A DNA stretch of 64,000 nt from Flavobacteriales bacterium (lineage in GTDB: Bacteria > Bacteroidota > Bacteroidia > NS11-12g > UBA9320), in assembly GCA_020635355.1 (NCBI GenBank), contig JACJZW010000004.1, forward strand, positions 129,226-193,225, in the 5' to 3' direction. Positions 2,385 through 61,351 of this stretch are shown piece by piece. The notes below the pieces were generated by a model. It did no database searches. It saw only the letters and a program-made list of their open reading frames with translations, and had not been told where the DNA came from. How positions within the stretch are numbered: the stretch's first letter is position 1; each line of letters begins with the position of its first letter. Position numbers and translations under genes: made by a program.

Positions 2385-3383
2385 ATGAGCAACCTTCGAG
2401 CCGCCATTACCGCAGTAAACGGCTATGTTCCCGATGACGAACTTACCAACTTCGATCTCGAAAAAATGGTGGATACAACGGATGAATGGATCCGATCCAG
2501 AACGGGTATTGAAACACGTCACATTCTGAAGGGAGAAGGAAAAGGAGCATCCGATATGGCTGTTCCGGCGGTAGAAGGGCTATTAAAAAAACGAGGAATA
2601 GACGCATCGGAAATTGATCTGCTGATCTGTGCAACGGTAACAGCTGATTACGTTTTTCCCGCAACAGCAAATCTTATTTGTGACCGGATAGGAGCAAAAA
2701 AGGCTTGGGGTTATGATCTTTCTGCTGCATGCTCCGGTTTTTTGTATGCACTGGAAACAGGTCGTAGAATGATCGAATGCGGTCAATACAAGAAAGTAGT
2801 TGTAGTTGGGGTGGATAAAATGTCGTCCATCATTGATTACACCGATCGCACCACCTGTATCATCTTTGGTGATGGTGCGGGCGCCGTCCTTTTAGAACCT
2901 ACTACGGAGGAAGTTGGAATCATAGACAGCATACTCAGATCCGATGGTTCTGGGTTTGATTATCTTCATCAGAAGGCAGGTGGCTCTGTTTTACCTCCAA
3001 CACATGAAACCGTGGACAATCGTCTGCATTACGTGTATCAGGAAGGAACTACTGTATTCAAATTCGCGGTGGTAAACATGGCTGAGGTTAGCTATGAAGT
3101 GATGGAGCGCAATAATTTGACGGGTGATGACATCCAATGGCTGGTGCCTCATCAGGCCAATAAGCGAATTATTGATGCCACAGCCAATCGAATGGGATTG
3201 GATCCTGAACGGGTCATGCTGAACATCCAGCGATATGGAAACACCACTGCAGGAACACTTCCTTTGTGCCTGCACGATTATGAATCTCAACTCAAAAAAG
3301 GAGATAACATCGTACTTGCCGCATTTGGAGGAGGCTTCACTTGGGGGGCGATCTATCTTAAATGGGCGTACGATCCATCCTGA
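2385..3383 (+). CDS. fabH: 3-oxoacyl-ACP synthase III
   Basis: 332 aa; active-site Cys in [11 protein letters not shown] and a FabH-like C-terminal region. Confidence 0.9.
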
Positions 3384-5330: not shown

Positions 5331-8231
5331 ATGAAAATACCGGCGAACGCTTCATACGAGTTAATCTATTCCATAGCGGAACACCCCTATTTGGGACCGC
5401 TCATCGAGGCGTATATCGTTCAGTTAACGTCTTCCGGTAAATTGTCGCTTGTTCATCAGCGTATTCATGCGAACAACGCCGATTTCTATGATCGCAAATT
5501 GGATGAATCTGATTACCAAACTCTAAAATTACTGGATGAGATCACCCCTGAGTTTATTGCGAAAAAGTTCAGCACTAAAGGGCGTATCCGACCAAAGGAT
5601 TTCTTTGATAGGGAATTCCGACTGGATCTTCATCGAAAACAAATCCGTCCCTTTATTGAAAAGCGTCTTGCTCAGGTTCTCAAACTCATTTACGGCAAAA
5701 AGGTATACCGGCGAACAGGCAAAAATGTAATCGCCGAAAGTGCCGATTGGAGCCCTAATCGCGCCACGGTCTTATTTCATCTTCGACGGAATGAGGACAA
5801 TACGCACTACTTCGCAACCATCAAGCACAATGGCGCTCGGATTAACATTACAGGCAGCCATTCATTGATGCTCACCGAATCACCCTGTTATCTGCTCTGC
5901 GGTGGACTGATCATGCAATTCGATGATGAACCGGATGGAGCTAAACTGGCACCTTTTTTAAAGAAGAAGTTCATCGAAATACCCCGGAAGTCGGAGCGGG
6001 AATACTTGCAGAAATTCGTGATTCCATTATTGGAAGAGCATTCCGTTTATGCCGTAGGTTATGAGATCAGTTCTGAAAAGTTCAAGGCCAGACCCAAATT
6101 GAAGATCACCCATTTAGTTGATGGTCAGGTTGGTGCATTGCTTCTCTTTCAATATGGAGAACATGACTTTCCCTTTCAAGCTGGCAAAGAGGTATCCGTT
6201 TTTATGACTCCCGATCGTGGGTCGTATCAATTTACACGGGTACGCAGGTCCCTCGAATGGGAGGGACATAAAAGTGAGGCACTGAAGTCACTTGAGCTGC
6301 AATCTGCAGGAGGAGCCGAGTTTAAGTGGGGAGATCAGTTTGAAGTACACGACGCCATTGGTTGGCTAAAGCAAAATCAGGAATCCCTGCAAAAGGCAGG
6401 CTTCGAGGTTGAAATAGACCTTGATCACCACTATTCTCTTATGGATGGTGAACTAACCTACACCATACGAACAGAGAATGATTGGTTTGATGTCCGGGCC
6501 ATGGTTCGATTTGGAACCGCGGAGATTCCATTCATCACCGTTCGAAAAGCCATTTTATCCGGTGATCGCTTTATCACGTTACCCAATGACCAACGCGCTC
6601 TCATCCCTCAAAAGTGGATCGATCAAATAAAGGGTCTGGATGCGTTCTCCACATCAACCGATGCCTTCAAACTTGACCGACATCACATTGGATTGATTCA
6701 AGAACTGGAATTGGATTCTACCAAAACGTTTAAAACAGAGGAGGCACTCATCCCTCTGGTTGACGTTGAAACCCCTTCCGGTTTTCAAGGATCGTTAAGA
6801 CCTTACCAACATGCGGGGTACAACTGGTTAAATTTCTTATACGCCAATCATTTTGGTGGCTGCCTGGCTGATGATATGGGATTAGGTAAAACGGTTCAGA
6901 CACTGGCTTTTTTGCAACAGATCAAAGAATACGGTTTGAATGATGATCAAATAACAGCCAAAGGGCAAATGCCCTTGTTTGGCGCACCCGCCTCACGAAC
7001 CTCTCTATTGGTTGTTCCAACATCCTTGACCCATAACTGGTATTATGAGTCCAAACGATTTACACCAGATCTGAACATCGGTATTCATGCCGGGCCCGGA
7101 AGGGCGAAAACCTCAGATCGATTTTCATATTATGATCTGATCATTACGACGTACGGGACACTTCGAAACGACCTTAAGATTTTTAAGTCGTTTGATTTTG
7201 AATTGATCATTTTGGATGAAAGTCAGTTTATCAAGAACCCGACTTCCAAAATGGCCCGATCGGCTTATCAGTTGAACGGCCGCATGAAACTAGTATTAAC
7301 CGGTACGCCGGTAGAAAATTCCATCACGGATTTGTGGTCGCAGATGAACATGGTGAATCCGGGAATCCTGGGAGGATTTACGTCCTTCAAGAGTACCTAT
7401 GTGACCCCAATCGAAAAGCATCATCAAACGGACTTGTTGGAACGACTCCAAAAGGTTATTCAGCCTTTTGTGATGCGCAGAACGAAGATGCAGGTAGCCA
7501 CCGATCTTCCTCCCAAAACAGAGCAAATTGTGTATTGCGACATGACGGAAGAACAGGAGGACATCTATGAGAAAACCAAATCAACCTACCGAAATCAGAT
7601 CCTGGACGCCATCCAGTCCAACGGGATGGCCAAGAGTCAGATTCAGATTTTGGCTGGTTTAACCAAGCTTCGACAGATGGCTAACCATCCGTTGTTGTGT
7701 GAGGAAAATTTCAAAGGGGAATCCGGGAAATTCGATGAGGTGGTAAACCGTCTTCACACGGCGTTGGACGAAGGGCATAAAGTGTTAATGTTCTCGCAGT
7801 TTGTTGGACATCTAACCCTATACCGCCATTATTTGGATGAGCGCGGGATTGATTACGCCTATTTGGATGGTGGCACGGCGGCATCGGTGCGGAAGGACGA
7901 AGTCCGAAAGTTTCAACAGGAGGAAGTGAGTTTGTTTCTGATATCCCTGAAGGCCGGAGGGTTTGGACTGAACCTGACTGCAGCGGATTACGTCTTTCTG
8001 TTGGATCCCTGGTGGAATCCGGCGGCTGAAAATCAGGCGGTTGACCGGGCACATCGGATTGGTCAGGACAAGCCCGTTTTTAGCTATAAGTTCGTGACCG
8101 GCAATACGGTAGAAGACAAGATCATACGGCTACAGGAAAAGAAACTTCAGTTGAGTTCTTCTCTCATAAAGACCGAAGAATCGTTCATTAAAAAGATCAA
8201 TATGGATGAACTTCAGGAAATATTGACTTAG
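5331..8231 (+). CDS. SNF2-family helicase/ATPase with a ~480-aa N-terminal extension (RapA/HepA-like)
   Basis: Contains the DDMGLGKT Walker A, an LDESQFIKN DExx box and a helicase-C region (LISLKAGGFGLNLTAADYVFLLDPWWNPAAENQAVDRAHRIGQ). Confidence 0.85.
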   Translation: MKIPANASYELIYSIAEHPYLGPLIEAYIVQLTSSGKLSLVHQRIHANNADFYDRKLDESDYQTLKLLDEITPEFIAKKFSTKGRIRPKDFFDREFRLDLHRKQIRPFIEKRLAQVLKLIYGKKVYRRTGKNVIAESADWSPNRATVLFHLRRNEDNTHYFATIKHNGARINITGSHSLMLTESPCYLLCGGLIMQFDDEPDGAKLAPFLKKKFIEIPRKSEREYLQKFVIPLLEEHSVYAVGYEISSEKFKARPKLKITHLVDGQVGALLLFQYGEHDFPFQAGKEVSVFMTPDRGSYQFTRVRRSLEWEGHKSEALKSLELQSAGGAEFKWGDQFEVHDAIGWLKQNQESLQKAGFEVEIDLDHHYSLMDGELTYTIRTENDWFDVRAMVRFGTAEIPFITVRKAILSGDRFITLPNDQRALIPQKWIDQIKGLDAFSTSTDAFKLDRHHIGLIQELELDSTKTFKTEEALIPLVDVETPSGFQGSLRPYQHAGYNWLNFLYANHFGGCLADDMGLGKTVQTLAFLQQIKEYGLNDDQITAKGQMPLFGAPASRTSLLVVPTSLTHNWYYESKRFTPDLNIGIHAGPGRAKTSDRFSYYDLIITTYGTLRNDLKIFKSFDFELIILDESQFIKNPTSKMARSAYQLNGRMKLVLTGTPVENSITDLWSQMNMVNPGILGGFTSFKSTYVTPIEKHHQTDLLERLQKVIQPFVMRRTKMQVATDLPPKTEQIVYCDMTEEQEDIYEKTKSTYRNQILDAIQSNGMAKSQIQILAGLTKLRQMANHPLLCEENFKGESGKFDEVVNRLHTALDEGHKVLMFSQFVGHLTLYRHYLDERGIDYAYLDGGTAASVRKDEVRKFQQEEVSLFLISLKAGGFGLNLTAADYVFLLDPWWNPAAENQAVDRAHRIGQDKPVFSYKFVTGNTVEDKIIRLQEKKLQLSSSLIKTEESFIKKINMDELQEILT

Positions 8232-8288
8232 AAAAGAGCCTCATTCATTGAATTTTTAGTGATCTTGCCCAACAATTATTTTACGACA

Positions 8289-9050
8289 ATGAGAAAAAGT
8301 TTTACCCTAATGATCATGATGGTATGTGCTGTTACCGCCTTCGGTCAACGAAATGTTGACTGGTCGGTTGATACCATCCTGACGAATGAAGTTACCAGTA
8401 ACACAACTCAAGGTTCCATTTTTAACATCGAAGCGGTGTTCAAGAATAATGGACCAGACACCGTTTTAATGGGCGATACGGTAGCCTATCAATTTGTGGT
8501 GCTCAACTCAAATGATCAGCCTATGATTGCCGTTCCGCAAACCGGTTTAGGCGCGTATCTCTTCAATCGCCGGTTCGAGCCAGGTGATACCATGCATTTT
8601 CACCTTCGATTGGTGTTGAATACCTATTACACCACGTCGTTCAATTGTAAGTTGAGAGTATCATCTGCCATCTTCAACCGAACCACTCCAGGTGGAGTTG
8701 CCTCTGAGCAAACGGCAACTGCCGCGAACAATATTTATGTCAAGCCGGTGATTTGGTATAACCCTCAAGGTTGGGGTGTTGGTATTGATGACGTGGAAGT
8801 GTCGTCCATCATGCTGTATCCAAACCCAGCAGTGAATACAGCCGTAATTTCATTTAATCAAGTGAACGTTACCGAGCAATCGAACGTAGAAGTGTATGAC
8901 CTCAACGGTCGTCTCTTACATTCCCAACAAGTAGTAGCCGGCGCACGCGAGTGTACCTTGAATACAACGAATCTTCAAAATGGATTTTACATCGTTAAAG
9001 TGGGCAATTCTGCCTTCCAAAGCGAGCAAAAAATTCAGATTCAGAAGTAA
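8289..9050 (+). CDS. secreted protein with T9SS (Por) C-terminal sorting domain
   Basis: Signal peptide MRKSFTLMIMMVCAVTAFGQ. The C-terminus ...LYPNPAVNTAVISF...YIVKVGNSAFQSEQKIQIQK resembles a Por secretion tail. The start is taken at the internal ATG; the ORF track extends it to 8259. Confidence 0.6.
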   Translation: MRKSFTLMIMMVCAVTAFGQRNVDWSVDTILTNEVTSNTTQGSIFNIEAVFKNNGPDTVLMGDTVAYQFVVLNSNDQPMIAVPQTGLGAYLFNRRFEPGDTMHFHLRLVLNTYYTTSFNCKLRVSSAIFNRTTPGGVASEQTATAANNIYVKPVIWYNPQGWGVGIDDVEVSSIMLYPNPAVNTAVISFNQVNVTEQSNVEVYDLNGRLLHSQQVVAGARECTLNTTNLQNGFYIVKVGNSAFQSEQKIQIQK

Positions 9051-9903: not shown

Positions 9904-11468
9904 TGGCAGATCAATCATCCAAATCGGCTGAAACCCGACGGGACTGGCTTTTGCGAAAACGTCGCGAAGCCTTGAAAGGTGGGGGAGAAAGTCGCATCGA
10001 AGCGCAACACGCTAAAGGCAAACTAACAGCCAGAGAGCGGTTGGATTATTTGCTTGATAAAGGAAGTTTCGAAGAGATCGGTGCATTTGTGAAGCATCGA
10101 AGCACGGATTTTGGACTGGATAAAAATCATCCACTGGGCGATGGTGTGGTGACCGGATACGGTACCATCAACGGCCGGTTGGTATATGTGTTCTCCCAGG
10201 ACTTCACGGTTTTTGGCGGATCGCTTTCTGAGACACATGCCGAGAAAATCTGCAAAATCATGGATTTGGCCATGAAGAACGGAGCCCCGGTGATTGGACT
10301 CAATGATTCAGGTGGCGCCCGAATTCAGGAGGGCGTTGTTTCGTTAGGTGGCTACGCCGATATTTTCTACCGAAATACCTTGGCCAGTGGAGTGGTTCCG
10401 CAGATATCAGCGATCATGGGGCCCTGCGCCGGAGGAGCGGTGTATAGCCCGGCCATTACCGACTTCATTATGATGGTGGAAGACACCTCTTATATGTTTG
10501 TGACCGGACCCAATGTGGTGAAAACCGTAACAAACGAAGAAGTAAGTTCAGAAGATTTAGGAGGAGCATCGGTTCATTCATCCAAATCCGGTGTGGCGCA
10601 TTTTACCGCGCCAAATGAGATTGCCTTGATGGATAATCTCCGCAGTTTGCTTTCCTATCTTCCTCAAAATTGTGAAGAGCATGCCGAAATGCTCACCTAT
10701 GATCTAAACGATGAAGTTCGTGCGGAATTGGCCGGTATTGTTCCAGAAAACCCCAATCAGCCGTACGATATCCGTCAGGTGGTAGATGGCATTGTGGATC
10801 CCGATAGCTTTTTTGAGGTACACAGCGCATTTGCTGAAAATATCGTGGTGGGTTTTGCCCGATTGGCGGGAAGAAGTATCGGAATTGTTGCCAATCAACC
10901 GGCCTTCCTCGCGGGGGTGTTAGATGTTAAGTCCAGTCAAAAAGGAGCTCGGTTTGTGCGATTTTGTGATGCCTTCAACATTCCGTTGCTGGTGTTGGAA
11001 GATGTACCTGGCTTCCTTCCGGGAACCGATCAGGAGTGGAACGCCATCATTACAAATGGCGCCAAACTGCTTTATGCGTTTAGCGAAGCTACCGTGCCAA
11101 GGGTAACCGTTATTACCCGCAAGGCCTACGGAGGAGCTTACGATGTGATGAATTCCAAGCACATTGGAGCCGATATGAACTTTGCATGGCCATCGGCAGA
11201 AATCGCTGTAATGGGAGCGAAGGGTGCAGCCGAAATCATCTTCCGACGAGAAATCCAATCGGCCGAAGATCCAGAGGCGGCACTAAAGGAACACGAACAC
11301 GAGTATGCAACGATTTTTGCGAATCCATATCGGGCGGCGGAACGTGGCTTTGTGGATGAAGTAATCCTTCCAGAAGAAACTCGAATTAAGTTGATCAAAG
11401 CATTTAAGATGCTGGAAAACAAGGTTGATCATCTTCCTAAAAAGAAGCACGGAAACATCCCACTTTAA
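9903..11468 (+). CDS. acyl-CoA carboxylase carboxyltransferase subunit (propionyl-CoA carboxylase beta / methylmalonyl-CoA carboxyltransferase family)
   Basis: 521 aa with AccD/PccB-like sequence. The start ATG overlaps the yebC stop by 1 nt (TAATG). Confidence 0.85.
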
Positions 11469-11473
11469 GATTC

Positions 11474-12604
11474 ATGGCAGAAGAGAAGCAGTATGATTTG
11501 TTGATTGTTGGCGCCGGTCCGGTGGGTTGTGTGGTGGCAGAGCGCGCAGCCAGACTTAAAGGTTGGCGATCACTGATCATTGAAAAGCGAAACCACATTG
11601 CTGGGAATTGTTACGATCGGTATCATGAAAGTGGCGTTTTGATTCATCAGTATGGTCCGCATTATTTTAGGACCAATAAGAAAGAACTGTTTGACTACTT
11701 GAGTGAGTTCACCGGATGGATTCCGGGGAATTACATCGTCAAATCGTCAACCCGAGGTGAGTTATTTCCCTTTCCCATCAACCTTAAAACACTGGAGCAG
11801 TTTTTTGGTCGGACCTTTACCGCTGAAGAAGCTGAAGCCTTTCTCGAAGAGATTCGGATTAAAAAGGATCATATAGATAACTCCGAAGACTTCGTCCTAT
11901 CCCGCGTGGGCAAGGAAATGTACGAGGCGTTTTACCTGGGTTATACCCTAAAGCAATGGGAAAAACACCCCCGGGAACTCAATAAGAGTGTATGCGGACG
12001 AATTCCGATCCGGTTTAATCGTGATGAGCGTTACGTGGATCATGATTATCAGTTCACCCCCGACAAAGGATTTACGGAGCTGTTCACCCGTATGACCGAT
12101 CATGAATTGATTGATATCCGGTTAGAAACCGATTTCGAATCAATCCGTGGTGAGATTACGCCTCGGATAGCCACACTTTACAGTGGTCCGGTGGATGCTT
12201 ATTTTAACTATCAATTGGGAAAACTGCCATGGCGATCCCTTGATTTTACTTTTACGGAATATCCCGAAGAATATGTTCAGCCCTGCGTTCAGATCAATTA
12301 CCCCAATGATCATCCCTATACGCGTTCGGTTGAGATCAAGCATGTGACGCAGCAAAAGAGTCCGAATACCGTAGTGAGTTATGAGGTGCCGGTTTCGGAA
12401 GGTGATCCGTATTACCCCATTCCGGCGGATGCCAATGCGGAGTTGTATCAACAATACAAGGTATTGGCCGATGAGGAAAATCGGAAGAATAAGGTCTATT
12501 TTACAGGCCGACTAGCGCGCTATACCTACATCAATACCGATGAGGCTATTGAGATGGCCCTGGATACCATTAATGAGATAATTCGTGACGCAGAAGAAGG
12601 ATAA
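11474..12604 (+). CDS. glf: UDP-galactopyranose mutase
   Basis: 376 aa; N-terminal FAD-binding GxGxxG (LIVGAGPVGCV) and UGM-like motifs (HQYGPHYF, YTLKQWEK). Confidence 0.7.
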   Translation: MAEEKQYDLLIVGAGPVGCVVAERAARLKGWRSLIIEKRNHIAGNCYDRYHESGVLIHQYGPHYFRTNKKELFDYLSEFTGWIPGNYIVKSSTRGELFPFPINLKTLEQFFGRTFTAEEAEAFLEEIRIKKDHIDNSEDFVLSRVGKEMYEAFYLGYTLKQWEKHPRELNKSVCGRIPIRFNRDERYVDHDYQFTPDKGFTELFTRMTDHELIDIRLETDFESIRGEITPRIATLYSGPVDAYFNYQLGKLPWRSLDFTFTEYPEEYVQPCVQINYPNDHPYTRSVEIKHVTQQKSPNTVVSYEVPVSEGDPYYPIPADANAELYQQYKVLADEENRKNKVYFTGRLARYTYINTDEAIEMALDTINEIIRDAEEG

Positions 12605-13313
12605 CGTTTGGATCATCATGCCGGTGTACAACGAGGAGGCATCCATCGGCCATGTGCTGGATGTTTGGATTCCGGTTTTTGATGAACATCTGGAACGCTA
12701 TACCCTGTGCGTTTTAAACGATGGGTCCAAGGACAATACACGGGATATACTGGATGAGTATGCCAATCGGTTCCCGCAACTGAGTGTGGTGCACAAAGAC
12801 AATTCAGGTCATGGGCAAACGTGTATCTACGGATATGAAATCGCGTTGAAAGAAGGGGCAGAATGGGTTTTTCAGATTGATTCAGACGGACAATGTAATC
12901 CAAAGCACTTTTCGGCGGTGTTAACCAAGAGCGAACAAAATCCCGTGGTGTACGGATTTCGAAAAACCCGGGACGATGGCTGGAAACGCTATTATATTTC
13001 GCGTGTCGTGAGCATTTTCATTTGGATTGCCACCGGTGTTTGGGTCCGGGATGCCAATGTGCCGTATCGGTTCATGCATAAATCAACCCTCATTCACATC
13101 TTGCCCTTGGTTCCAAAGGATTTCCATCTGGCGAATATTTTGATCTCGACGTACCAGCAGTATCGATATGGAATCCAATGGGTAAACATTCATTTTGACG
13201 ATCGATTTGGTGGTGAGCCATCGGTAAAGGTGTCGCTTTTTGCCAAGCACGGAATCGTGATGTTTAACCAGTTGAGAAGTGCCTTTAAAGCAGTGAAGGC
13301 TGCGAAGGTTTAG
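12585..13313 (+). CDS. family 2 glycosyltransferase
   Basis: GT2-type N-terminus (IIMPVYNEEASI) and a DxD-like region. It overlaps the glf 3' end; an alternative start lies at the internal Met at 12618. Confidence 0.7.
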   Translation: MTQKKDNVWIIMPVYNEEASIGHVLDVWIPVFDEHLERYTLCVLNDGSKDNTRDILDEYANRFPQLSVVHKDNSGHGQTCIYGYEIALKEGAEWVFQIDSDGQCNPKHFSAVLTKSEQNPVVYGFRKTRDDGWKRYYISRVVSIFIWIATGVWVRDANVPYRFMHKSTLIHILPLVPKDFHLANILISTYQQYRYGIQWVNIHFDDRFGGEPSVKVSLFAKHGIVMFNQLRSAFKAVKAAKV

Positions 13314-13354
13314 CCTTCTTCACATCCTCATCATTCTGATGTATCTTTTGCCGG

Positions 13355-14839
13355 ATGAACCGGCTAATTTCACGTAGCACATCAATTTTTCGTTCTTGGG
13401 GCAGTCAATTGACAATCCTGGCAGTGGTTCTCCTCTCCTTATTCCCCTTATTTGGTCATCTGGATTCACAGCCTCTGCGCCTGTGGGATGAATCCCGATT
13501 AGCCCACAATGCCGCTGAGATGTATAACTCAGAATCGTATTTGGTGGTGCAATTTCAAGGTAAACCGGAACATTGGAGCACCAAGCCCCCGTTAATGATC
13601 TGGCTGCAATGTCTGAGTTATAAGGTGGTTGGTGTGAACGAAATGGGAGTGCGTTTACCCTCCGCATTTGCCGGATTGATGTTGATCATGTGCATGGTTT
13701 GGTTTCTTATCAAAATGCGGCTCAGTCCAGCTTGGGCAATCGTTGCCATGATTCTACTTTTATCCATTCGGGGCTTTAACGGAGAACACGGTATTCGATA
13801 CGGAGAATATGATGGGTTATTAGCCCTCTTTGTATTGATTCAACTTACTGGCTTTACATTTTGGCTGATTCACCCATCCGAACCCGATGCCAAATTTCGA
13901 TGGTTGTTCTATCTGGGAATGGTGGGTGCCGTGTGGACAAAGGGGATTGCCGGATTGTTACTCGCGCCGGTTTACCTGTTTTGGATGATCCGGATGTTAG
14001 GCTGGAGAGAATTAGTCAAATTGATTCCGGAATGGTGTGTCATTTCCATTCTACTTTTTGGCTACTACCCCATTCGGGAGTTATTGGATCCCGGCTATCT
14101 GAAGGCGGTTTGGAATAACGAAATTTCCCAACGGTTTACGGGTAATCTGGAGAACCACCGGGAAGAATGGACGTATTATTTTCATGAATTTCATCATCAA
14201 ACCTCCGGGAGTTGGATAATCATGCTGCTGATTATTACTCTTGGAATATATTACTCCAATAGTCCATTACGGCGGGTACTGATTTTCTTGTCCAGTGCTG
14301 CGTTAATTTTGTTTGTCATACTAAATCTGGCATCCACCAAGATTTATTGGTACCTATTGCCGATATATCCTATCCTCGTTTTAACCACCGTTTTGGTTGT
14401 TTCAAGGGGTCTTCAAACGGTAACCTCAACAAAAAGAAAGGTCGTAAAATGGGGGGTGTACGTTCTTATTGGAGCGGTATCGAGTGTTTTATACGGTCGA
14501 TTGATCATCTCAACTTCCCACATAACCGCCCATGTACCTGGCGATCATGGATTTTATGAAGTCACCAATTTTATACGATCTCAGCTTGGATCAAAGGATA
14601 CACTGCATTGGACGTTCATTGATACGGATTACAGTGGTCATAATTGGTGGTACATTGATCGTTTAAACGAACAAGGACATGATATGGTGTACGATATTCA
14701 CCTGGATTCAGTTGAAAAAGGGGATATTCTCCTTTTACGTCAAAAGGAAATCAGAGATTCCGTTAAGGTGATGTATCATACGCAAAACGTCTTTAATCAC
14801 ACTGACTATAGCCTGATCAAGTTGTACGATCTCAGATAA
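13355..14839 (+). CDS. polytopic membrane glycosyltransferase (ArnT/PMT-like, GT39/GT83-type)
   Basis: 494 aa with many predicted transmembrane segments; it follows glf and the GT2. Confidence 0.5.
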   Translation: MNRLISRSTSIFRSWGSQLTILAVVLLSLFPLFGHLDSQPLRLWDESRLAHNAAEMYNSESYLVVQFQGKPEHWSTKPPLMIWLQCLSYKVVGVNEMGVRLPSAFAGLMLIMCMVWFLIKMRLSPAWAIVAMILLLSIRGFNGEHGIRYGEYDGLLALFVLIQLTGFTFWLIHPSEPDAKFRWLFYLGMVGAVWTKGIAGLLLAPVYLFWMIRMLGWRELVKLIPEWCVISILLFGYYPIRELLDPGYLKAVWNNEISQRFTGNLENHREEWTYYFHEFHHQTSGSWIIMLLIITLGIYYSNSPLRRVLIFLSSAALILFVILNLASTKIYWYLLPIYPILVLTTVLVVSRGLQTVTSTKRKVVKWGVYVLIGAVSSVLYGRLIISTSHITAHVPGDHGFYEVTNFIRSQLGSKDTLHWTFIDTDYSGHNWWYIDRLNEQGHDMVYDIHLDSVEKGDILLLRQKEIRDSVKVMYHTQNVFNHTDYSLIKLYDLR

Positions 14840-14896
14840 ACCATGACTGATCGTCAGGCTACCTACGTGATTCCGATCATTTCAAAATCTACATTC

Positions 14897-14981
14897 AAAA
14901 ACTTAAACGTTTAAAATTCCCACCCAACGCGGTGAAAAGAGGAATCTGTTGTAATCGTAATTTTCTGAGTTGAGCGATTGC
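14897..14981. repeat. ~85-bp direct repeat, copy A (about 93% identical to copy B at 16971..17055)
   Basis: aaaaacttaaacgtttaaaattcccacccaacgcggtgaaaagaggaatctgttgtaatcgtaattttctgagttgagcgattgc; aligned to copy B by eye, with 6 mismatches. Confidence 0.7.
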
Positions 14982-15266
14982 GCTTAACCACGATAGATGT
15001 ATATTATCATAATCTGTCATAGCGAGCATAGATTGGGATAACCGTTAACCTGGCTCAGTTGAACTGAGAATAGATTTGTCATTTTTTCTATTTTTAAACA
15101 GTTCCAAAAACCGATAAGGCTACTAAAACGTGTAGGTTACACGCGGGCAAAAAGCAAATGATTTAGTTTGAATAAGTTTTTACTTTAGAGCAAAAGAGAT
15201 AAATTTACTTGGTGTTGTTCTGATTTTATTGGCAATGTGCACTCAATTATCAATTTGTAGTTTGGC

Positions 15267-15884
15267 ATGAAGCTCTTTTCAATTTTTTGTCTTGTTTTTT
15301 TAGGGCAAATGGCTTTAGGACAAAACCACAACTTAGTACAACATAAAAAGTATTTTAATACAGAGCTGAAGCATTGGGTAGGAAGCTTTAACAATTTCAA
15401 GTTATCAGACTTTAAGCTTGTTGATACTTTGCACTTTGACACTAATTATCCTCAGGAAATTAAGTCGTTAGAGAAGTTCTTGTCCGTTTATAAGCCTATC
15501 ATTACATTTTCTGATGACAGTTCAAAGTTCATTGACATCTATAGTTATCAATTAAACCTTGAAAGGAACGGAAATCATTATCAGGCAAATCCAGACATAG
15601 ATCAAGCAATATTATTGTATGACGCCAAGGCAAAATATTGGAATAGAATTTTCTTTGGAACAAGTTCACAATGGATTGACGAAGTTTTATGGGTTTCAAA
15701 GACACAATTTATCTTAGTTGGTATTACGAAGTCAGAACAGGACAAAAAACAACCACTAGTACTTTTGGGCGACACTAATGAACAGTGGCTGATTAAATAT
15801 GTTGACCTTAATAAACTAACATTTCAAAACAATAATGGGTATTCATCATCAAAGTTGAAGCGAATTAGGATTGAAGGACTCTAG
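15267..15884 (+). CDS. hypothetical secreted protein
   Basis: Signal peptide MKLFSIFCLVFLGQMALGQ. AT-rich gene lying inside the direct-repeat-flanked insert. Confidence 0.5.
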   Translation: MKLFSIFCLVFLGQMALGQNHNLVQHKKYFNTELKHWVGSFNNFKLSDFKLVDTLHFDTNYPQEIKSLEKFLSVYKPIITFSDDSSKFIDIYSYQLNLERNGNHYQANPDIDQAILLYDAKAKYWNRIFFGTSSQWIDEVLWVSKTQFILVGITKSEQDKKQPLVLLGDTNEQWLIKYVDLNKLTFQNNNGYSSSKLKRIRIEGL

Positions 15885-16072
15885 AGTCACATGTTGCCTT
15901 GGAAGACGATTAACATTGGAACCATAATATCATCTCAAACCACTGAATTTGTAAAATGACATTAACGCACGGGCTTTCCAGACGGGTACCATCAAAATCA
16001 GATCAATCCGTTATAAACCGATAAGGCTTCCAGGGTAATCAAATAAGCAATAAACTAATAAGACACTAGCAA

Positions 16073-16732
16073 ATGGCGAAATGTTTCTTGATACTAATCA
16101 TACCATGGGTTCCATTCAAAGTAAAGGGATCGGTTTTTGCCAATAAACCCTATAATTATTCTGTTACTTTTCAATCATCCTCTTACTCCAAATTTGTAAG
16201 ATCGTTCGACTATCCGGAGTGGAAAATTAACCCTAAAACAATGTTGTTTGGTGGGAGAGCGCTATCTTTTACGATGGCTTTAAATGAAAGGTGGAATGTG
16301 GATATTTCTGGGCGCTCGATCGATAAATGGGCAGATTTGGATCTGCTTTTTATCAATGTTCCATTTGGAGTTGTTCCAGATAAACCGGCAGGGATTCTTG
16401 AGTATCAGTTGGAAATTGGGGTGAGTCAGGAGATTGAGCTAATCCCCAAGTTGAATCTATTACCAGAAGTGGGCATAGTTTTTCGTGAGATTACCTATGT
16501 GTACATGATAAGAATACCTGTGGAATATCTTACACTTAAACCGGAACCTCCTATTCATAATGCCGGTTTAAGGTATTCATGTTCCTTACTGTATTCTGCT
16601 GGTAAAAAGGAAAGAGTGCTTCTTGGAATTACTGGGGGATATTGCGATTTTAATGGTCTAGATACTTGGTTACTTGGATACCAGCTCGGAGTGCGATTTA
16701 ATGTTAAGAGAAAAATTGTGATTAATGAATGA
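16073..16732 (+). CDS. hypothetical protein
   Basis: 219-aa ORF in the same AT-rich insert; nothing recognisable in the sequence. Confidence 0.4.
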   Translation: MAKCFLILIIPWVPFKVKGSVFANKPYNYSVTFQSSSYSKFVRSFDYPEWKINPKTMLFGGRALSFTMALNERWNVDISGRSIDKWADLDLLFINVPFGVVPDKPAGILEYQLEIGVSQEIELIPKLNLLPEVGIVFREITYVYMIRIPVEYLTLKPEPPIHNAGLRYSCSLLYSAGKKERVLLGITGGYCDFNGLDTWLLGYQLGVRFNVKRKIVINE

Positions 16733-16970
16733 CTTGTAGGACAATCAGCTAACTATGCGTAGAATACATCGAGAACTACAAATGACTTTGTAGTAAAGGT
16801 GTGTTGTCGATTGGTGTAATTACTCTAACACTTCTAAAAACCCCCTTGTTATTATTCTGAACTAAGGGAGGTTGTGATTTCCGACACGTCGTGATTGAAA
16901 GAAGTAATTGATTTGATGGTGAATTTTGGCAAAATCTTCCTGAAGGTATAACGAATGCACCACCCCACTA

Positions 16971-17055
16971 AAAAACTTAAACGTTTAAAATTTCCACCCA
17001 ACGCGGTGAAATGAGGAATCTGTTGTATTCGTGATTTTCTTCGTTGAGCGATTGC
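16971..17055. repeat. ~85-bp direct repeat, copy B (immediately upstream of ssb; likely includes the ssb promoter/leader)
   Basis: aaaaacttaaacgtttaaaatttccacccaacgcggtgaaatgaggaatctgttgtattcgtgattttcttcgttgagcgattgc; it ends 23 bp before the ssb ATG. Confidence 0.7.
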
Positions 17056-17078
17056 ATTCGCACTAAATCAAATCAACT

Positions 17079-17420
17079 ATGAAAAGTTTACGAAACAGCG
17101 TACGCCTGATGGGCAATCTCGGATCAGATCCGGAGGTGCGCGAAACCAACAACGGGAAGAAACTGGCCAAATTCAGTCTGGCCACTAATGAGACCTATCG
17201 CAAGCAAGATGGGGAACAAGTAACCGAAACACAATGGCACAATCTTGTGGCCTGGGGTAAAACGGCCGAAATCGTTCAGAAGTACCTGTCCAAAGGACGC
17301 GAGGTATCCATCGAAGGAAAACTCACCAACCGCAGTTGGGAAGATGAATCCGGAACCAAGAAATACATCACGGAAATCGTGGTAAACGAATTATTGCTCA
17401 CCGGCAAAAAAGAAGCCTAG
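17079..17420 (+). CDS. ssb: single-stranded DNA-binding protein (short form, OB-fold only)
   Basis: 113 aa with an SSB-like OB-fold (MGNLGSDPEVRETNNGKKLAKFSLATNE...TQWHNLVAWGK...). No C-terminal acidic DDIPF-type tail. Confidence 0.85.
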   Translation: MKSLRNSVRLMGNLGSDPEVRETNNGKKLAKFSLATNETYRKQDGEQVTETQWHNLVAWGKTAEIVQKYLSKGREVSIEGKLTNRSWEDESGTKKYITEIVVNELLLTGKKEA

Positions 17421-17438
17421 AACCGGCAGTGATGTGAT

Positions 17439-17473
17439 AACCCATCCGGTCTTCGGATTGGATGGGTTTTTTG
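17439..17473 (+). terminator. rho-independent terminator after ssb
   Basis: AACCCATCC...GGATGGGTT stem followed by TTTTTT. Confidence 0.6.
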
Positions 17474-17623
17474 TACTTTCGCAGGGCATTAGACAGGGGT
17501 GTCGGACATGAATCCGGCTGAGATTATACCCGTTGAACCTGATGCGGTTCATACCGCCGAAGGGAGTCATTGGAGTGTTCTGCACCGCTTTCCTGCGCGT
17601 ATTTATTATTTATACCCATTGCG

Positions 17624-20080
17624 ATGAACATCAGAAACTCCCTTCTTTTAGTCCTATTTGTTGCGCTGATTGGATCCACCCTTTGTGCCCAACAAGTTGT
17701 GTTTACCCTGGTTGATCGGACAACTAATTTACCTATTGAACATGTTGAGGTTGTTATCATATCGCCCAATAAATCAACTTCAGATCCTGTTGCCAGGTAT
17801 ATCACCAATTCATCCGGAAAGCTCACAGCAAACGTGTCATCGTCCCAACGATATACGGTAATTACACATCATATATCCTACGAGACCGACACCTTTTACT
17901 GGCACAACCAAAACCCGTTCGTGATCCAACTTACACCAACAACGGAGAAAATGGAGGAAGCATTAATTACCGCTGTTCGTCCTTCCAAGGAAGTGCCATC
18001 AACCACCACATTGGTTACCAAGGAGGAGATTGATCGGGTGAATTTTGGTCAGGACATGCCAGTGTTATTATCTCAAACTCCTTCAACCGTCACGAGCAGT
18101 GATGCCGGTTCAGGAGTGGGGTATACCGGTATCCGAATTCGTGGAATAGATCCAACGCGGGTGAATGTGACCATCAACGGCATTCCATTGAATGATGCCG
18201 AGTCCCACGGTGTTTATTGGGTTGACTTGCCCGACTTTGCCAGCAGTTCCAACAGTATTCAGATTCAACGTGGTGTGGGAACCAGTACCAATGGCGCCGG
18301 GGCATTCGGGGCGAGCATTAACATCAAATCAGATCATGTTGAGCGCAATCCGTTCGTAGTAGCTGATGTCGGATATGGGTCATTTAACACAAGAAGAATC
18401 TCAATCCAACAAGGTACTGGCGTATCAAAAACTGGTTGGGGGCTGCAATCCCGGTTGTCCTTGATTCAATCGGACGGCTTTATTGATCGCGCCTCATCGG
18501 ATTTGCGATCGCTTTTTCTGACTGCCGCACATTACGGGAAGCGGGATCTGTTAAAATTCAATGTAATTCTGGGTCACGAACGCACGTATCAAGCCTGGTA
18601 TGGCGTTCCGCAACCCTATTTTAATCAGGATAAGGACGGCACAGAAGCCTTCATGAATGAGTTGTATTTCACTCCGGAAGATCGAGATCACCTATATGCC
18701 AGCAAATACAACCGATACAATCCATATACCTATGAAAATGAAGTTGACAATTACGACCAACATCACTTCCAGGGATTCTATAACCGACGATTAAAAGGAG
18801 GCATTCACTTAAATACAGGTTTACACTACACCAAGGGTTTTGGTTATTATGAGCAGTATCGTCCGGATGATGAGTTTGCCACCTATGGGTGGGATACTGT
18901 AATGCTTGGTGGTGATACCATTAGGTCTGGTGATTTTATCCGACGAAGATGGTTGGATAATGATTTCTATGGAATGATCTTCTCCCTGAACATTCCGGTT
19001 GATCATATAAATCTAATCGCAGGTGGCGGCGTACATCGTTACATCGGCAGGCATTGTGGAGAAGTGATCTGGGCACAATTTGGCTCTGACGGCTTCCTCG
19101 GAGATCGATATTACAACCAGGACGCCAGAAAAGATGATGCCAATCTTTACCTCAAGTTAACCACCAATTACCAGGACCATCTTTTCTTTTATGGCGACAT
19201 GCAGGTCAGAACGGTGACCTATGACCTTGATATGGTGAGTGGACATCTCAATGAACAACTCACATTCTTCAATCCCAAGGCTGGGGCAACGTACGGATGG
19301 GGAGCAAAACGAAATCATACGGCTCATATTATGCTGGCTGTGGCCAACAGGGAACCCGTTCGGGACGATTATGTCTCAGCACCTAATAGTTTCAAACTTC
19401 GACATGAAAACCTTCGGAATCTGGAGGTTGGAAACGAATGGCAATTCCGAAAAGTGACGGGGCGAATCAATGGGTACTACATGTATTACCGATACCAATT
19501 GGTTTTAACAGGAGAGATCAATGATGTGGGCGATTACATCCGAACCAATGTCCCTAAAAGTTATCGGGCCGGGGTAGAAACAGAGGTGGCCTATGAGCCC
19601 AATTCATCCTGGAGGATCACCGCAAATGCCACCTTTAGCCAGAATAAAATTGTTGAATTCACGGAGTATGTGGATGATTGGAGTACGGGTGATCAAGTGG
19701 CGTTTGATCATGTGAAAAGTGATTTAGCCTTTTCCCCGGCGTTGATTGGGTTCGCGTCCATCGAGTATCGGGTTAAACCGCAAATAAATCTGAATCTAAA
19801 TGGGAAATATGTCTCCCAACAATACCTGGATAATAGCCAAAGTGCAGAACGAAGTTTACCTGCCTTCTACGTAACCAACTTTACGGCCTCCAAGGACTGG
19901 GTTCTAAAGAAAGGTACCCAAATTTCATTGGGACTTCAGGTGAATAATTTACTGGATGTGGATTATGCTCCAAATGGGTACACCTTTGGGACCATGGATG
20001 CCGGTGTACGAAAGAGCTACAACTACGTTTACCCGATGGCAGGCAGACACGGGATGATTCGATTAAAAGTTAAAATCTGA
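17624..20080 (+). CDS. TonB-dependent outer-membrane receptor with N-terminal carboxypeptidase-regulatory-like domain
   Basis: Signal peptide MNIRNSLLLVLFVALIGSTLCAQQ, plug and barrel regions, and a C-terminal aromatic-rich beta-barrel end. The ORF-track start at 17570 is probably too early. Confidence 0.8.
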   Translation: MNIRNSLLLVLFVALIGSTLCAQQVVFTLVDRTTNLPIEHVEVVIISPNKSTSDPVARYITNSSGKLTANVSSSQRYTVITHHISYETDTFYWHNQNPFVIQLTPTTEKMEEALITAVRPSKEVPSTTTLVTKEEIDRVNFGQDMPVLLSQTPSTVTSSDAGSGVGYTGIRIRGIDPTRVNVTINGIPLNDAESHGVYWVDLPDFASSSNSIQIQRGVGTSTNGAGAFGASINIKSDHVERNPFVVADVGYGSFNTRRISIQQGTGVSKTGWGLQSRLSLIQSDGFIDRASSDLRSLFLTAAHYGKRDLLKFNVILGHERTYQAWYGVPQPYFNQDKDGTEAFMNELYFTPEDRDHLYASKYNRYNPYTYENEVDNYDQHHFQGFYNRRLKGGIHLNTGLHYTKGFGYYEQYRPDDEFATYGWDTVMLGGDTIRSGDFIRRRWLDNDFYGMIFSLNIPVDHINLIAGGGVHRYIGRHCGEVIWAQFGSDGFLGDRYYNQDARKDDANLYLKLTTNYQDHLFFYGDMQVRTVTYDLDMVSGHLNEQLTFFNPKAGATYGWGAKRNHTAHIMLAVANREPVRDDYVSAPNSFKLRHENLRNLEVGNEWQFRKVTGRINGYYMYYRYQLVLTGEINDVGDYIRTNVPKSYRAGVETEVAYEPNSSWRITANATFSQNKIVEFTEYVDDWSTGDQVAFDHVKSDLAFSPALIGFASIEYRVKPQINLNLNGKYVSQQYLDNSQSAERSLPAFYVTNFTASKDWVLKKGTQISLGLQVNNLLDVDYAPNGYTFGTMDAGVRKSYNYVYPMAGRHGMIRLKVKI

Positions 20081-22619: not shown

Positions 22620-23003
22620 CCGGTGGAGTTGAAGACGTTGGATTCAGGATGGAATAAAACCGGTGATGATATTGGCGCCCTTTTTCGGCGGTGGTAGAGT
22701 TAAGCGTTTAAGGAGTGATGCGGTGGTGAACAGGTTGACTTTTTTCGCTATCTTTCTACGGGGTAGGGGTGATTGCATCCCTCGCGAAAAAAATTTGAAT
22801 GGCAATCATCGGTTGGAAAGGTTGTCCAGCAATTGGTTTTTAATTTGTCTAATTCGTCACTCAACCCACATTGAGAACATGGGATAGCTGAGCGTTTTGG
22901 TGAATTAGATGGGGCATGACGCTTCACATATTAATTTATGGTGAACCGCTTTCAATTCGCGGTTTAGCATGTAACATTGTGTTCACTTCCACACCTATTG
23001 AAT

Positions 23004-56664: not shown

Positions 56665-56705
56665 CGTACATATCCTACGCATGGGCTGGAAGCTAAGTCT
56701 CAGGA
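56665..56705. repeat. hairpin repeat element copy 2 (degenerate)
   Basis: ccgtacatatcctacgcatgggctggaagctaagtctcagg. Confidence 0.5.
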
Positions 56706-56736
56706 ACCTGTGGTGCGATTGAAGTCAATGCAGGTT

Positions 56737-56781
56737 TATTCACCCATCAATTCATAATCCTTAGGATTATCCAGGATCGAT
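56737..56781 (-). pseudogene. 3' remnant of lipoprotein paralog (encodes ...SILDNPKDYELMGE*)
   Basis: Near-identical to the 3' ends of the genes ending at 60546 and 62367. Confidence 0.45.
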
Positions 56782-57225
56782 GGTATAGGTTAGTTTTACC
56801 AGACCATATTTCGGTGATAATATTATTAAGCGATTGAGTCTGATTTATTATTGAATATGTATTCAGAGTTACTACGATAGACAGCTGAGACTGTTAAGTA
56901 CCCCTGATATGGTAAATCCTTCTTCATTTGAACACAATCAAATACCGTCCTATCATATAACTGTATCCTTAAACACATTTTTGACTAAAAGAAACCAGAA
57001 CCGTTGGTTAACCATAACCTTTGCTTAACTTTCGAAAAGTGTTGGTCCGTTTTGAACTGAATCAAATCTATGACGTAGGGAGTCCTCTCCTCTTTCATTC
57101 GGAGTTTTTAAAACTTTGTGTACACGTTCTTTACACATTGGTTTTAGACAAGCTTTTACCTCAAATCCAAATTGAATGAACAATCAGTTCTCCCAAAAAA
57201 ATAGGAGGAATTGTCAATATTTCCG

Positions 57226-57417
57226 TTAAACGATGCAGTATCTTGACGAATACAATTCGTCAAAAAGTTCAACTACATCTTGCTCAGTCGGTTGAATCTT
57301 ATGTGACGCAGGTAATACCCAAAATTGTGGAGGCCCGTCATCCACGCCGCAGGAGGAGAAACTGCCAAGACAAAGACTTATGAGGAAGTATAGAATGATA
57401 TGTTGAGTAGAAGACAT
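57226..57417 (-). pseudogene. N-terminal remnant of lipoprotein paralog (63 codons)
   Basis: Translation ...LCLGSFSSCGVDDGPPQFWVLPAS...EQDVVELFDEL matches the SSCGSDENPNNECPPQFFELQPSVEDMIESL region of the intact paralogs. Confidence 0.5.
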
Positions 57418-58290
57418 AGGTAGGTTATGGTTTTTCTAATGCTATAACACAGCGGTTAGAACCAATGCCTGTTCACTTAATCATTTCGTACCCATAATCG
57501 GGATCAAACCAAAAGATCAGAAAAGTCGGCTTTAAGATGGAGTATATCCTCTGCTTCTATAATGATATCTCCGTAAGCTGAAAATTACCCCCCCAAATCG
57601 CGAAAGGTTTGGTTCCTATTGTATGTTGGGGTTATATCCAATGCTAGAATAGTCACCAATTCCAGAAAGACATTGCCTGCAAAATTCACATAGTACAAGT
57701 CTTCGCAAAGAAAACGTAAACTAAAGATTCCTGAGCCCTCATTTAAATTTGTACTTCAAATGGTGAAGAAACCTTCGTATTGTGATAAAGTGCTGTTTTT
57801 CTTTCAATGTGAACTATCTCGTTGATCTCCCTGGAATGGTTGATTTGCTTCGTTCAAGGGTATCTATTTCATTTCTTAACTAAGTAATAGGTTGAGGTGT
57901 CTACAACCATCCCATTTACCTGTCTTTTTTCCAAATACCAGGGAATCTAGGGTATTAAAACATGAAAGTGACAAGTCGGTCAAGTGTATTGGGTTTGAAC
58001 CTTACATAGAAATGTATGATATTTAGTGTGGGATCCTCTTTACAGGGAATGGATTCTAGAAACAAAGATAAAAACAACTGAGTATACAGGTTTTTCATGA
58101 TTTAGGTTGAACCAGAATACTTACGAGTTGTTTTATTGTCCATTGTTTTTTTGGTTGAATTCTCCATTGTTCTGCTGTACCTTTAAAAGTTGGTATGTTT
58201 TACTCAGTATGAAAAATTATAATCAAGGGAGTTAGGGTAGATGTGTTTGGGACGATATGGCACATTTTATAGTGTTGTAGTTTACCTTTT

Positions 58291-58893
58291 GTGCAACTTC
58301 CGTCCTGCACATCAGATGACGGCAAGACGGATTGCGAAAATCTGGAATTTAAATTTCAAGGTACATTGGATGACCTGATTACCGATCTTTTAGTCGGCAT
58401 GCTGTTTGAACGTAGTTTAGATGGCCTGTTGGTTGACACTGTTTCTCTTAAATTGGAATCATTTGAAACCGATTTCATTCATCTTCACCACTGTAATAAT
58501 GCTACCCGTTCGATGGAGTTGAAATGGCTCCAGTACAGGTGGTCAGCGGATTTAGAAGATATATCTCTTGCTTTTATTAAATCGGGATCAACGTCAACAG
58601 ATGCCTTTGCCACCTGGGGGGAACTCGACCTGTATAGTCGAAATTTCTTCCATAAAAGCGGGTATACGATTGTCTTCCAAAAGGATACTTTCTTTGATTG
58701 TAGGAGTTTTGATGATGTGTTGTCTCCGGTCAATAATATTGTGGGTTTAGGGAAGTATTTTGATTCAAATGCCAACGTCCAATTCAAGCCAAACACCTCG
58801 AAGGCCTTTGTATACCTCAAGCGGGAATCCGGACTTGTTTTGCTGAAACGGATAAATCCGGACGGGGTTATAGAATCGTATAAGCGAATTTGA
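58291..58893 (+). pseudogene. lipoprotein-family ORF lacking signal peptide (possible 5'-truncated paralog, GTG start)
   Basis: Begins (V)QLPSCTSDDGKTDCENL, a lipobox with no preceding signal peptide, and resembles LLSCKDDASDTNCEETI of the 59721..60422 gene. There is no ATG; an in-frame stop lies 7 codons upstream. Confidence 0.35.
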
Positions 58894-58966
58894 ACGGTAT
58901 CTCAATTAATTTGCATGAGTTCGAATAATTAGATCCTTGGTTAAATAAGGTTGTTAATTTCGTGTT

Positions 58967-59005
58967 CCGTAGACATCCTACGCACGGGCTGGGCTAAGGC
59001 TACGG
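58967..59005. repeat. hairpin repeat element copy 3
   Basis: ccgtagacatcctacgcacgggctgggctaaggctacgg. Confidence 0.7.
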
Positions 59006-59701: not shown

Positions 59702-59720
59702 TTTATAGAGGATTGGTTGT

Positions 59721-60422: not shown

Positions 60423-60478
60423 TCAATTCACAGTCTTCCAAAAATACGTAGATGGTGCAAATGTGCTACAGGCGTGTT

Positions 60479-60521
60479 CCGTTGACATCCTTCGAACGGG
60501 CTGGGCTAATTCTTCGGAACG
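60479..60521. repeat. hairpin repeat element copy 4 (degenerate stem)
   Basis: ccgttgacatccttcgaacgggctgggctaattcttcggaacg; lies 25 bp after the upstream gene stop and 57 bp before the 60422 start. Confidence 0.55.
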
Positions 60522-60545
60522 TGTGGCGGGATTGATCACTGCGGT

Positions 60546-61205: not shown

Positions 61206-61265
61206 TGGATAGATTGTTAAACAAGTATAGTGTTTACGGTTGGTTAATTGTAGGATTCGGTAATC

Positions 61266-61296
61266 ATCCTCCACACGGGTCGGGCTAAGGCTAAGG
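61266..61296. repeat. hairpin repeat element copy 5 (5'-truncated)
   Basis: atcctccacacgggtcgggctaaggctaagg. Confidence 0.5.
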
Positions 61297-61351
61297 AAAG
61301 TGGGGGAGCAGGAAATAGTAATGCCAGTCATCAGTTGTTCGTATTTTTGGA

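Follow-up and report, generated by a model that had tools for sequence, protein, structure and literature searches.

How did the control region of a housekeeping gene come to stand at both ends of a low-GC segment that carries two genes of separate history? This question is raised by a locus upstream of ssb in a 64,000-nt stretch of DNA from an uncultured Flavobacteriales lineage (GenBank assembly GCA_020635355.1, contig JACJZW010000004.1, positions 129,226 to 193,225 of the forward strand; hereafter the window, numbered from its first letter). Two copies of a direct repeat R, termed R_A (left) and R_B (right), enclose a 1,984-bp segment with two open reading frames, ORF1 and ORF2, and R_B is followed directly by ssb. 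An initial annotation of the locus described a two-gene foreign insert, possibly left by site-specific integration with duplication of an attachment (att) site, and gave duplication of the promoter as the alternative. In our analysis, R_A may be read as the scar of general, not site-specific, recombination upstream of ssb, and the reading we tentatively favour, with a probability of roughly 0.4, is a homology-anchored import from a relative.

The repeat is 90 nt long, and its copies were identical at 82 of 90 positions (91%, 8 mismatches) in a repeat search of the window. Their longest identical runs are 22, 18, 15 and 13 nt. The shorter span noticed initially (85 nt, 14897-14981 and 16971-17055), with 6 mismatches and an end 23 nt before the ssb ATG, was confirmed as part of this repeat. 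R_B spans -113 to -24 of the ATG at 17079, and R_A begins 52 nt after the stop of the GT39/ArnT-like glycosyltransferase gene (14839) and ends 286 nt before the start of ORF1. When the window was searched with a two-copy profile of R (nhmmer), only these two sites were obtained (E ~1e-30 each; next best E ~2), and an 18-mer taken from R gave 2 hits against 0.02 expected. No further copy of R or of the segment was found in the window, no R-like site was found in 1.5 Mb of other fetched loci, and comparison of the R_A and R_B flanks gave no similarity past either end of R, with scores at or below the shuffle mean. The arrangement is no assembly artefact and is fixed in the sampled population, because independent metagenome assemblies gave 17 contigs of the same species that run collinear with the window (99.1-100% identity), and all R copies contained in them match those of the window at 100%; all 17 sites are occupied. 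About 22 nt is close to the minimum identical length for efficient homologous recombination, and the longest run of R would fit the absence of deletion (empty-site) variants among these contigs. Several other candidates were rejected. Contig ends near R in loci L005, L016 and L017, considered as alternative junctions, are all collinear with the window. A supposed third R copy at 22700 agrees with R in the 12-mer palindrome only, and an alignment extended beyond it scores no higher than shuffled sequence. Considered as a structured RNA, R gave folding z values of -0.6 and -1.2 and no Rfam match even at E <= 1, and neither an ssb pseudogene 3' of R_A nor ORF2-3'-like sequence 5' of R_A was found. 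The 3' junction of R_A (14965-14988) forms a near-perfect hairpin, GTTGAGCG-ATTG-CGCTTAAC, made half of repeat and half of non-repeat sequence, and R_B has a 4-bp stem only at the corresponding junction; this hairpin might be relevant to the formation of the junction, or it might be chance.

As the initial annotation had proposed, the repeat duplicates the upstream (promoter) region of ssb. R_B appears to be the native ssb control region and R_A a copy of it, because R carries a cis-element conserved upstream of ssb. This element is the perfect palindrome TTAAACGTTTAA with its core AAACGTTTA. In 12 of 52 full-length loci, the core falls between -150 and -50 of ssb; its background density is 0.0038 per 100 nt, and its enrichment upstream of ssb is about 60-fold across Flavobacteriales (ssb upstream regions L022-L101). 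The string TTAARCGTTTA occurs 11 times in the 1.5 Mb of fetched loci, and four of these occurrences are within 160 nt upstream of ssb. Many Flavobacteriaceae have TACAAACGTTTACAAACGAAAGTAA, in which the core often lies, in the ssb upstream region, with ...TTTG boxes of Bacteroidota type after it. The closest relative found, a metagenome-assembled genome (MAG, WGNA01000002; locus L022) with an SSB 78% identical to that of the window, has two similar palindromes, TTTAAACGTTTAC and CTTAAGCGTTTAAA, at positions -93 and -73 relative to the ATG of its ssb. Elsewhere in the window, a copy of the palindrome with one mismatch, TTAAGCGTTTAA, lies at 22700-22711, in the intergenic space of a divergent gene pair and upstream of a DUF3352 gene.

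The second element of the answer comes from ORF2. The adjacency of ORF2 and ssb is ancestral and predates the split between the window and L022, with ORF2 as a resident, fast-evolving gene, because an ORF2 ortholog also lies directly upstream of ssb in L022. The two proteins are 26% identical over 121 aa (BLASTP, pairwise E 8e-10), their Smith-Waterman score is 99 versus 31.8 +/- 4.9 for shuffles (0 of 2000 shuffles reach it), and the L022 protein has a z of 13.6 to ORF2 versus 0.5 to a distant ORF2 paralog of the window (59.0-59.8 kb). The order ssb, TonB receptor, 301-aa membrane protein is common to the window and L022, and L022 has neither ORF1 nor a second R. Among about 160 loci, no ORF1-like or ORF2-like gene was found beside ssb except in L022. 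Outside this pair, a word index of 5.8 billion (5.8e9) proteins returned no homolog of ORF2 besides itself, and HMMER over 1.84 billion (1.84e9) representatives gave one clear relative, P0222 (31% identity, E = 9e-28). The NCBI annotation of the MAG (H6608_06190, 152 aa) begins ORF2 at Met68. The 219-aa reading used here is probably the correct one, because P0222 aligns to ORF2 from about residue 20 and the common motifs PYxY and F(D/S)YPEW lie upstream of Met68. A single-sequence structure model of ORF2 was discarded as unusable (predicted local distance difference test, pLDDT, 26.5).

ORF1 has a different history. Its homologs (100 matches, 41-78% identity) are nearly all about 205 aa long, and those with names are mostly from Chitinophagaceae (Taibaiella, Lacibacter and Ferruginibacter), with one other Flavobacteriales MAG at 54%. 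ORF1 is 67% identical to the Taibaiella protein and 72% to that of a Chitinophagaceae MAG, and the Ferruginibacter protein is only 55-58% identical to either. At the DNA level, ORF1 is 78% identical to the Chitinophagaceae MAG, in a match confined to 15230-15893, little more than the gene. The contexts of the homologs are unrelated to each other: after rodA, after a beta-lactamase-fold gene, beside a two-component system, beside an IS3 transposase, and after a GldM-domain gene. ORF1 was probably acquired horizontally across orders from a Chitinophagaceae-like donor, because it nests within Chitinophagaceae diversity and its family occurs in variable contexts; the transfer between orders rests on the Flavobacteriales label given to the source MAG by its submitter. 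The foreign-insert claim therefore divides between the two genes: ORF1 is very probably of horizontal origin, and ORF2, with its ortholog beside ssb in L022, is not a newcomer. The ORF1 protein was modelled by AlphaFold (AF2) with a pLDDT of 89.6 as a mostly beta fold behind its signal peptide, with no significant match in the PDB (Foldseek, the sole structure library searched) and no family match in Pfam, NCBIfam or PHROGs. ORF1 as a cassette that moves with flanking repeats elsewhere was rejected, as no such repeats were found in L102, L104 and L105. In L105 (sister MAG H6607; 7024-8209), a hypothetical gene of 420 aa that stands two genes after the ORF1 homolog has within it a tandem duplication of about 600 nt, with 79-88% identity.

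The composition of the segment is distinct, as described initially, and does not carry the meaning then attached to it. GC content is 0.359 in the segment, 0.455 in the left flank and 0.459 in the right flank, and 45.5% in the window overall. GC content at third codon positions (GC3) is 0.346 for ORF1 and 0.347 for ORF2, the second and third lowest of 48 genes; the window mean is 0.483 (sd 0.065). Low GC between the R copies is no evidence of recent arrival, because the ORF1 family, the L022 ORF2 ortholog with its neighbours and native genes at 59-63 kb of the window are equally low; the latter have the same GC3 as ORF1 and ORF2. In all four loci checked (the window, L102, L104 and L105, with the gene at 6001-6618 in each of the last three), the ORF1 family has a GC of about 33% (0.33-0.34), in host loci of 0.39-0.46 overall, and this value persists across 54-78% protein identity. 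Low GC is thus a property of the ORF1 family and does not date the arrival of ORF1. In L022, the ORF2 ortholog and its upstream neighbours have a GC of 0.33 next to an ssb of 0.46, and the compositional step at ssb is ancestral because L022 shows the same step. The region upstream of ssb in this lineage appears to house low-GC genes that evolve fast and encode secreted or surface proteins. A 13-mer had also been reported to occur twice inside the segment, at about 15102 and 16011. The repeat is real; in fact it is a perfect 14-mer, AAACCGATAAGGCT, a few bases away from those positions. The pair is spaced by 907 bp and encloses ORF1 alone, and an exact repeat of at least 14 nt from flank to flank arose in 8 of 2000 shuffles. 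No 14-mer-like repeats were found around ORF1 homologs in other genomes. Either the junctions of an ORF1 insertion or a shared site of regulation may account for this 14-mer.

With a native ORF2, a probably acquired ORF1 and a derived R_A, the locus could have been formed by import as follows. In an ancestor, the glycan cluster would have abutted the ssb promoter (GT39 - R - ssb). This ancestor would have taken up DNA from a relative (strain or species) in which the older order, ORF1 - ORF2 - R' - ssb, persisted. The right end would have been made by homologous recombination anchored in or beyond the conserved ssb, and the left end by an illegitimate joint just downstream of the resident R, a process known as homology-facilitated illegitimate recombination (HFIR); as an equivalent route, a circular fragment would integrate by a single crossover within R. 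In the product, the resident R would be R_A, followed by the imported ORF1 and ORF2 and then by the imported R' as R_B. ORF1 would have entered the older arrangement earlier, horizontally and from a Chitinophagaceae-like donor, possibly as a piece of about 0.9 kb marked by the 14-bp direct repeat. Import explains both the sharp ends of R and the 9% divergence of its copies in a nearly invariant population. A homologous anchor is present, as R_B and ssb lie directly right of the segment and SSB is 61-78% identical across the order. Homologous recombination is also active at the locus in the population, as seen in strain L001, which has a 2-3% divergent tract ending at 13741.

Particularly, import is favoured because L107, an independent locus with the only other clear ORF2 homolog, shows the signature of import. 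P0222 is encoded at L107 (JGI Ga0535667_0001706), and the same structure is found in L108-L110. Here, a 5.1-kb low-GC segment consists of a 177-aa ORF, an M4 peptidase with a type IX secretion system (T9SS) tail and P0222, and it is bracketed by a 554-nt duplication of the 3' end of comM (Mg-chelatase-like) at 2616-3169 and 7753-8301. Copies of the hairpin repeat CGCCATGGTTGGTGTTATCACCAACCAT lie 3' of each comM copy, and no integrase is present. The two comM copies share 86% of their nucleotides and 96% of their amino acids. One of them must, on the codon evidence, have evolved inside a functional comM of another genome and have been imported with its cargo, because 44 codon differences are synonymous versus 6 non-synonymous.

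Several points weigh against import at ssb. No donor-like or empty-site genome was found in the collections. The recipient would be required to have lost ORF2 and then to have regained it. R is non-coding, with no alignable outgroup, and unlike comM in L107 it is not amenable to a synonymous/non-synonymous test of foreign origin; L107 itself stands alone as an example and belongs to another lineage. A native segment would be expected to have just as low a GC. In addition, a clear Bacteroidota-type promoter consensus (TTTG or TAnnTTTG) cannot be placed within R, and promoter activity is assigned to R_A and R_B from their position only. For the import route itself we therefore hold to the figure of about 0.4 given above.

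A close rival, which we consider somewhat less likely, is a local tandem duplication followed by loss. Here, ORF2 - R - ssb would become ORF2 - R - ORF2 - R - ssb, the duplicated unit ending at the 3' end of R, and the rearrangement that brought the glycan cluster would then remove the first copy as far as the present 5' edge of R_A. Last, ORF1 would insert between R_A and ORF2, the R copies would diverge in place, and R_A would be a co-opted ssb-type promoter for ORF1 and ORF2. This scheme agrees with the ancestral adjacency of ORF2 and ssb and with the low GC native to both gene families, and it needs no loss and regain of ORF2, as two breakpoints account for both ends of R. The 14-mer around ORF1 alone is consistent with a separate, later insertion of ORF1. 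The left flank is indeed rearranged relative to L022: the low-GC famX cluster, which adjoins the ORF2 ortholog there, is 42 kb away from ssb in the window, and both models need such a rearrangement. On the other hand, three separate events are needed. Nearby direct repeats tend toward homogenisation or deletion, yet the copies of R differ by 9% in a population almost without diversity. There is no trace of a first ORF2 copy upstream of R_A, and L107, where one copy is demonstrably foreign, lends no support. The initial alternative of promoter duplication was right about the nature of the repeat, but a head-to-tail repetition of the whole unit was not found; only the 90-nt R is repeated, and a tandem-duplication model therefore needs a later deletion. 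Our preference for import over local duplication is modest.

R_A might also be more than a scar. In a functional reading, which we hold improbable, the ssb control region with its AAACGTTTA palindrome, a putative regulator site, was copied before newly gained genes for secreted or surface proteins. As a broader part of the same reading, genes of the ORF2 family may move in cassettes without an integrase, captured through homology to a conserved housekeeping gene (ssb here, comM in L107), each capture leaving a duplicated anchor. If this is true, ORF1 and ORF2 would be under ssb-type (replication- or DNA-damage-linked) control. Apart from this reading, R_A is, from its position only, probably still a promoter and, if active, could drive ORF1 and ORF2. 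The best TAnnTTTG-like boxes are TAATTTTC in R_A and TGATTTTC in R_B, which by eye match 4-5 of 6 specified positions, and near-consensus AT-rich promoter boxes are also present nearer to ORF1 than R_A. A sigma-70 promoter scan was set aside, as its results were at chance level and the sigma-70 model is ill-suited to Bacteroidota. LexA-like SOS operators of Bacteroidota have the forms GGA-N5-TCC and CTAA-N5-TTAG, and ssb is among the regulated genes in several species (PMC8565304); the palindrome with core AAACGTTTA matches neither. R_B has a single site, CTAAAAAACTTAA at 16968, one mismatch from CTAA-N5-TTAG, and no exact match. The two 5'-most differences of R_A from R_B abolish its CTAA half-site, so that any control passed on through R_A would be minus this half-site, and no SOS-box-like site was found in R_A or in L022. 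One-mismatch sites of this type number 18 in the window, which corresponds to 0.04 per 145 nt by chance. Because about 0.04 is expected by chance in such a region, the SOS-box-like site of R_B is a weak lead.

The reading given first by the initial annotation, in which R_A and R_B are attL and attR of an integrative element, and an island with ORF1 and ORF2 entered the ssb promoter and later lost its integrase, is in our estimate very improbable. Direct repeats of tens of bases around compositionally distinct DNA, and a perfect 12-bp palindrome within the repeat, are what such an element could leave. As noted initially, however, no integrase is present: Pfam annotated no integrase, recombinase, transposase or excisionase within about 10 kb of the segment, and the genes at ~9.1-24.7 kb gave YebC, carboxyltransferase, GLF, GT2, GT39, ORF1, ORF2, SSB, TonB receptor, NifU, Mrp, DUF6787 and DUF3352. 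No tRNA or tmRNA gene that could be a target was found in the window; R is a non-coding region upstream of ssb, neither a tRNA gene nor the 3' end of a gene. As an ancestral neighbour of ssb, ORF2 is not cargo. The palindrome is conserved upstream of ssb in genomes without the insert, and appears to be a cis-element of ssb rather than an element-specific att core. The 1.5 Mb of other loci are also without an R-like site, ORF1 homologs elsewhere lack such repeats, and neither ORF1 nor ORF2 matched phages, plasmids, viral contigs or PHROGs. The repeat search found no terminal inverted repeats at the segment ends (14982 and 16965). With no mobile-element features at the locus, R is best read as a recombination scar. 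Usual target duplications of transposons are 2-14 bp, and a transposon-like insertion by cuts in the ssb promoter staggered by 90 bp, with subsequent fill-in, although the repeats abut the segment exactly and their homology stops sharply at both ends, is most improbable, as a 90-bp duplication is far above this range, the segment is single-copy, without terminal inverted repeats or transposase and with genes of separate histories, and fill-in would give identical copies and not copies that differ by 9%.

The features of the locus are collected in Table 1. On the left, GT39 is the last gene of a glf-GT2-GT39 glycan cluster. Compared over window positions 10226-18060, the most divergent strain (L001 / L014) has 72 single-nucleotide polymorphisms (SNPs), all left of 13741 and none to the right, which fall in the carboxyltransferase gene, glf, GT2 (up to 3.3%) and the first quarter of GT39. 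Position 13741 marks a recombination boundary inside GT39, and the distribution of SNPs suggests strain-variable glycan genes to its left. A genome scan for related loci by way of the GT39 protein found nothing, and the nearest GT39 homologs, 41% and 37% identical, are non-syntenic. On the right, the OB-fold domain of SSB scores above the curated cut-offs (121 vs 26 bits for PF00436 and 132 vs 54 bits for TIGR00621); a genome scan gave the SSB of L022 as the closest, and a metagenome scan gave nothing above 68%. Further right, a TPP riboswitch (Rfam RF00059, 65.8 bits) at 17485-17582 (+) directly precedes the TonB-dependent receptor gene at 17570-20080 (+) and overlaps its start, which suggests thiamine-regulated outer-membrane uptake by this receptor.

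Table 1. Coordinates of features around the duplicated ssb upstream region (window numbering)
Feature	Position	Strand	Remarks
GT39 / ArnT-like glycosyltransferase, left flank	13355..14839	+	Pfam PMT_2/PMT, weak NCBIfam ArnT hit
R_A, predicted derived copy of ssb promoter region	14892..14981	+	91% identical to R_B; identical in all same-species contigs
Perfect palindrome TTAAACGTTTAA in R_A	14903..14914	.	12 bp; core AAACGTTTA
14-mer AAACCGATAAGGCT, left copy	15108..15121	+	Perfect match to right copy
ORF1, 205 aa with signal peptide	15267..15884	+	Member of conserved ~205-aa mostly beta family
14-mer AAACCGATAAGGCT, right copy	16015..16028	+	44 nt upstream of ORF2 ATG
ORF2, 219 aa, signal-peptide-like N-terminus	16073..16732	+	Very rare, fast-evolving family
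R_B, predicted native ssb promoter / upstream regulatory region	16966..17055	+	Holds ssb-associated palindrome
Perfect palindrome TTAAACGTTTAA in R_B	16977..16988	.	12 bp; 5' part of R_B; core AAACGTTTA
ssb, 113 aa	17079..17420	+	Pfam SSB (PF00436) E 2e-35, TIGR00621
Strong intrinsic terminator after ssb	17439-17468		Terminator scan

A second low-GC island (0.35-0.42), whose genes have no Pfam family, lies at about 56700-63200 of the window. It contains the distant ORF2 paralog (59000-59773, -; profile E 5e-7), a gene at 61352-62332 (+), and three paralogous lipoprotein-like genes at 59721-60422, 60546-61385 and 62367-63122 (all -), the last two of which are very similar. In L022, homologs of these three paralogs are found directly upstream of the ORF2 ortholog and ssb, and the island was therefore rearranged away from ssb in the lineage of the window.

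This locus is a worked example of how a compositional dip and direct repeats can mimic the insertion of a mobile element. In addition, the analysis gave the palindromic core AAACGTTTA upstream of ssb across Flavobacteriales, a secreted beta-rich family of about 205 aa, and the homology-anchored import at L107. Among known systems, genomic islands of tyrosine recombinases, with att sites at tRNA genes or gene 3' ends, are similar to the locus in the direct repeat of tens of bases around low-GC accessory DNA. They differ in that the locus has no integrase and no tRNA or gene-3'-end target, in that R is 91% identical and not identical across a core, and in that ORF2 is ancestral at the site. Compared with the LexA-like SOS operators of Bacteroidota, R_B has its one-mismatch site before a gene that is SOS-regulated in several species, whereas the conserved ssb-associated palindrome (TTAAACGTTTAA, core AAACGTTTA) is another motif. 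Promoter duplication or co-option for acquired genes is similar in that a complete housekeeping upstream region stands before an acquired gene in the same orientation; here, however, R_A ends 286 nt before ORF1 and near-consensus boxes are closer to this gene.

The nearest likeness in mechanism is HFIR, or Campbell-type single-crossover integration. HFIR is an established process (PMC3240628), and it was cited and used as a model in PMC5361080, where de Vries & Wackernagel 2002 and Prudhomme et al. 2002 are given as its sources. The locus differs from these cases in that the duplicated piece is a promoter and not coding sequence, and in that it lies in an uncultured Flavobacteriales lineage that is not known for natural competence or any other uptake route. 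The similarities are as follows. First, foreign or allelic DNA would have been added beside a conserved anchor gene, here ssb. Second, one junction would be homologous and the other abrupt. Third, the sequence adjacent to the anchor is duplicated in direct orientation. Finally, no dedicated recombinase is necessary, and L107 shows the same signature. The event at ssb is of a known and ordinary kind, and the current understanding of gene transfer is unchanged by these findings.

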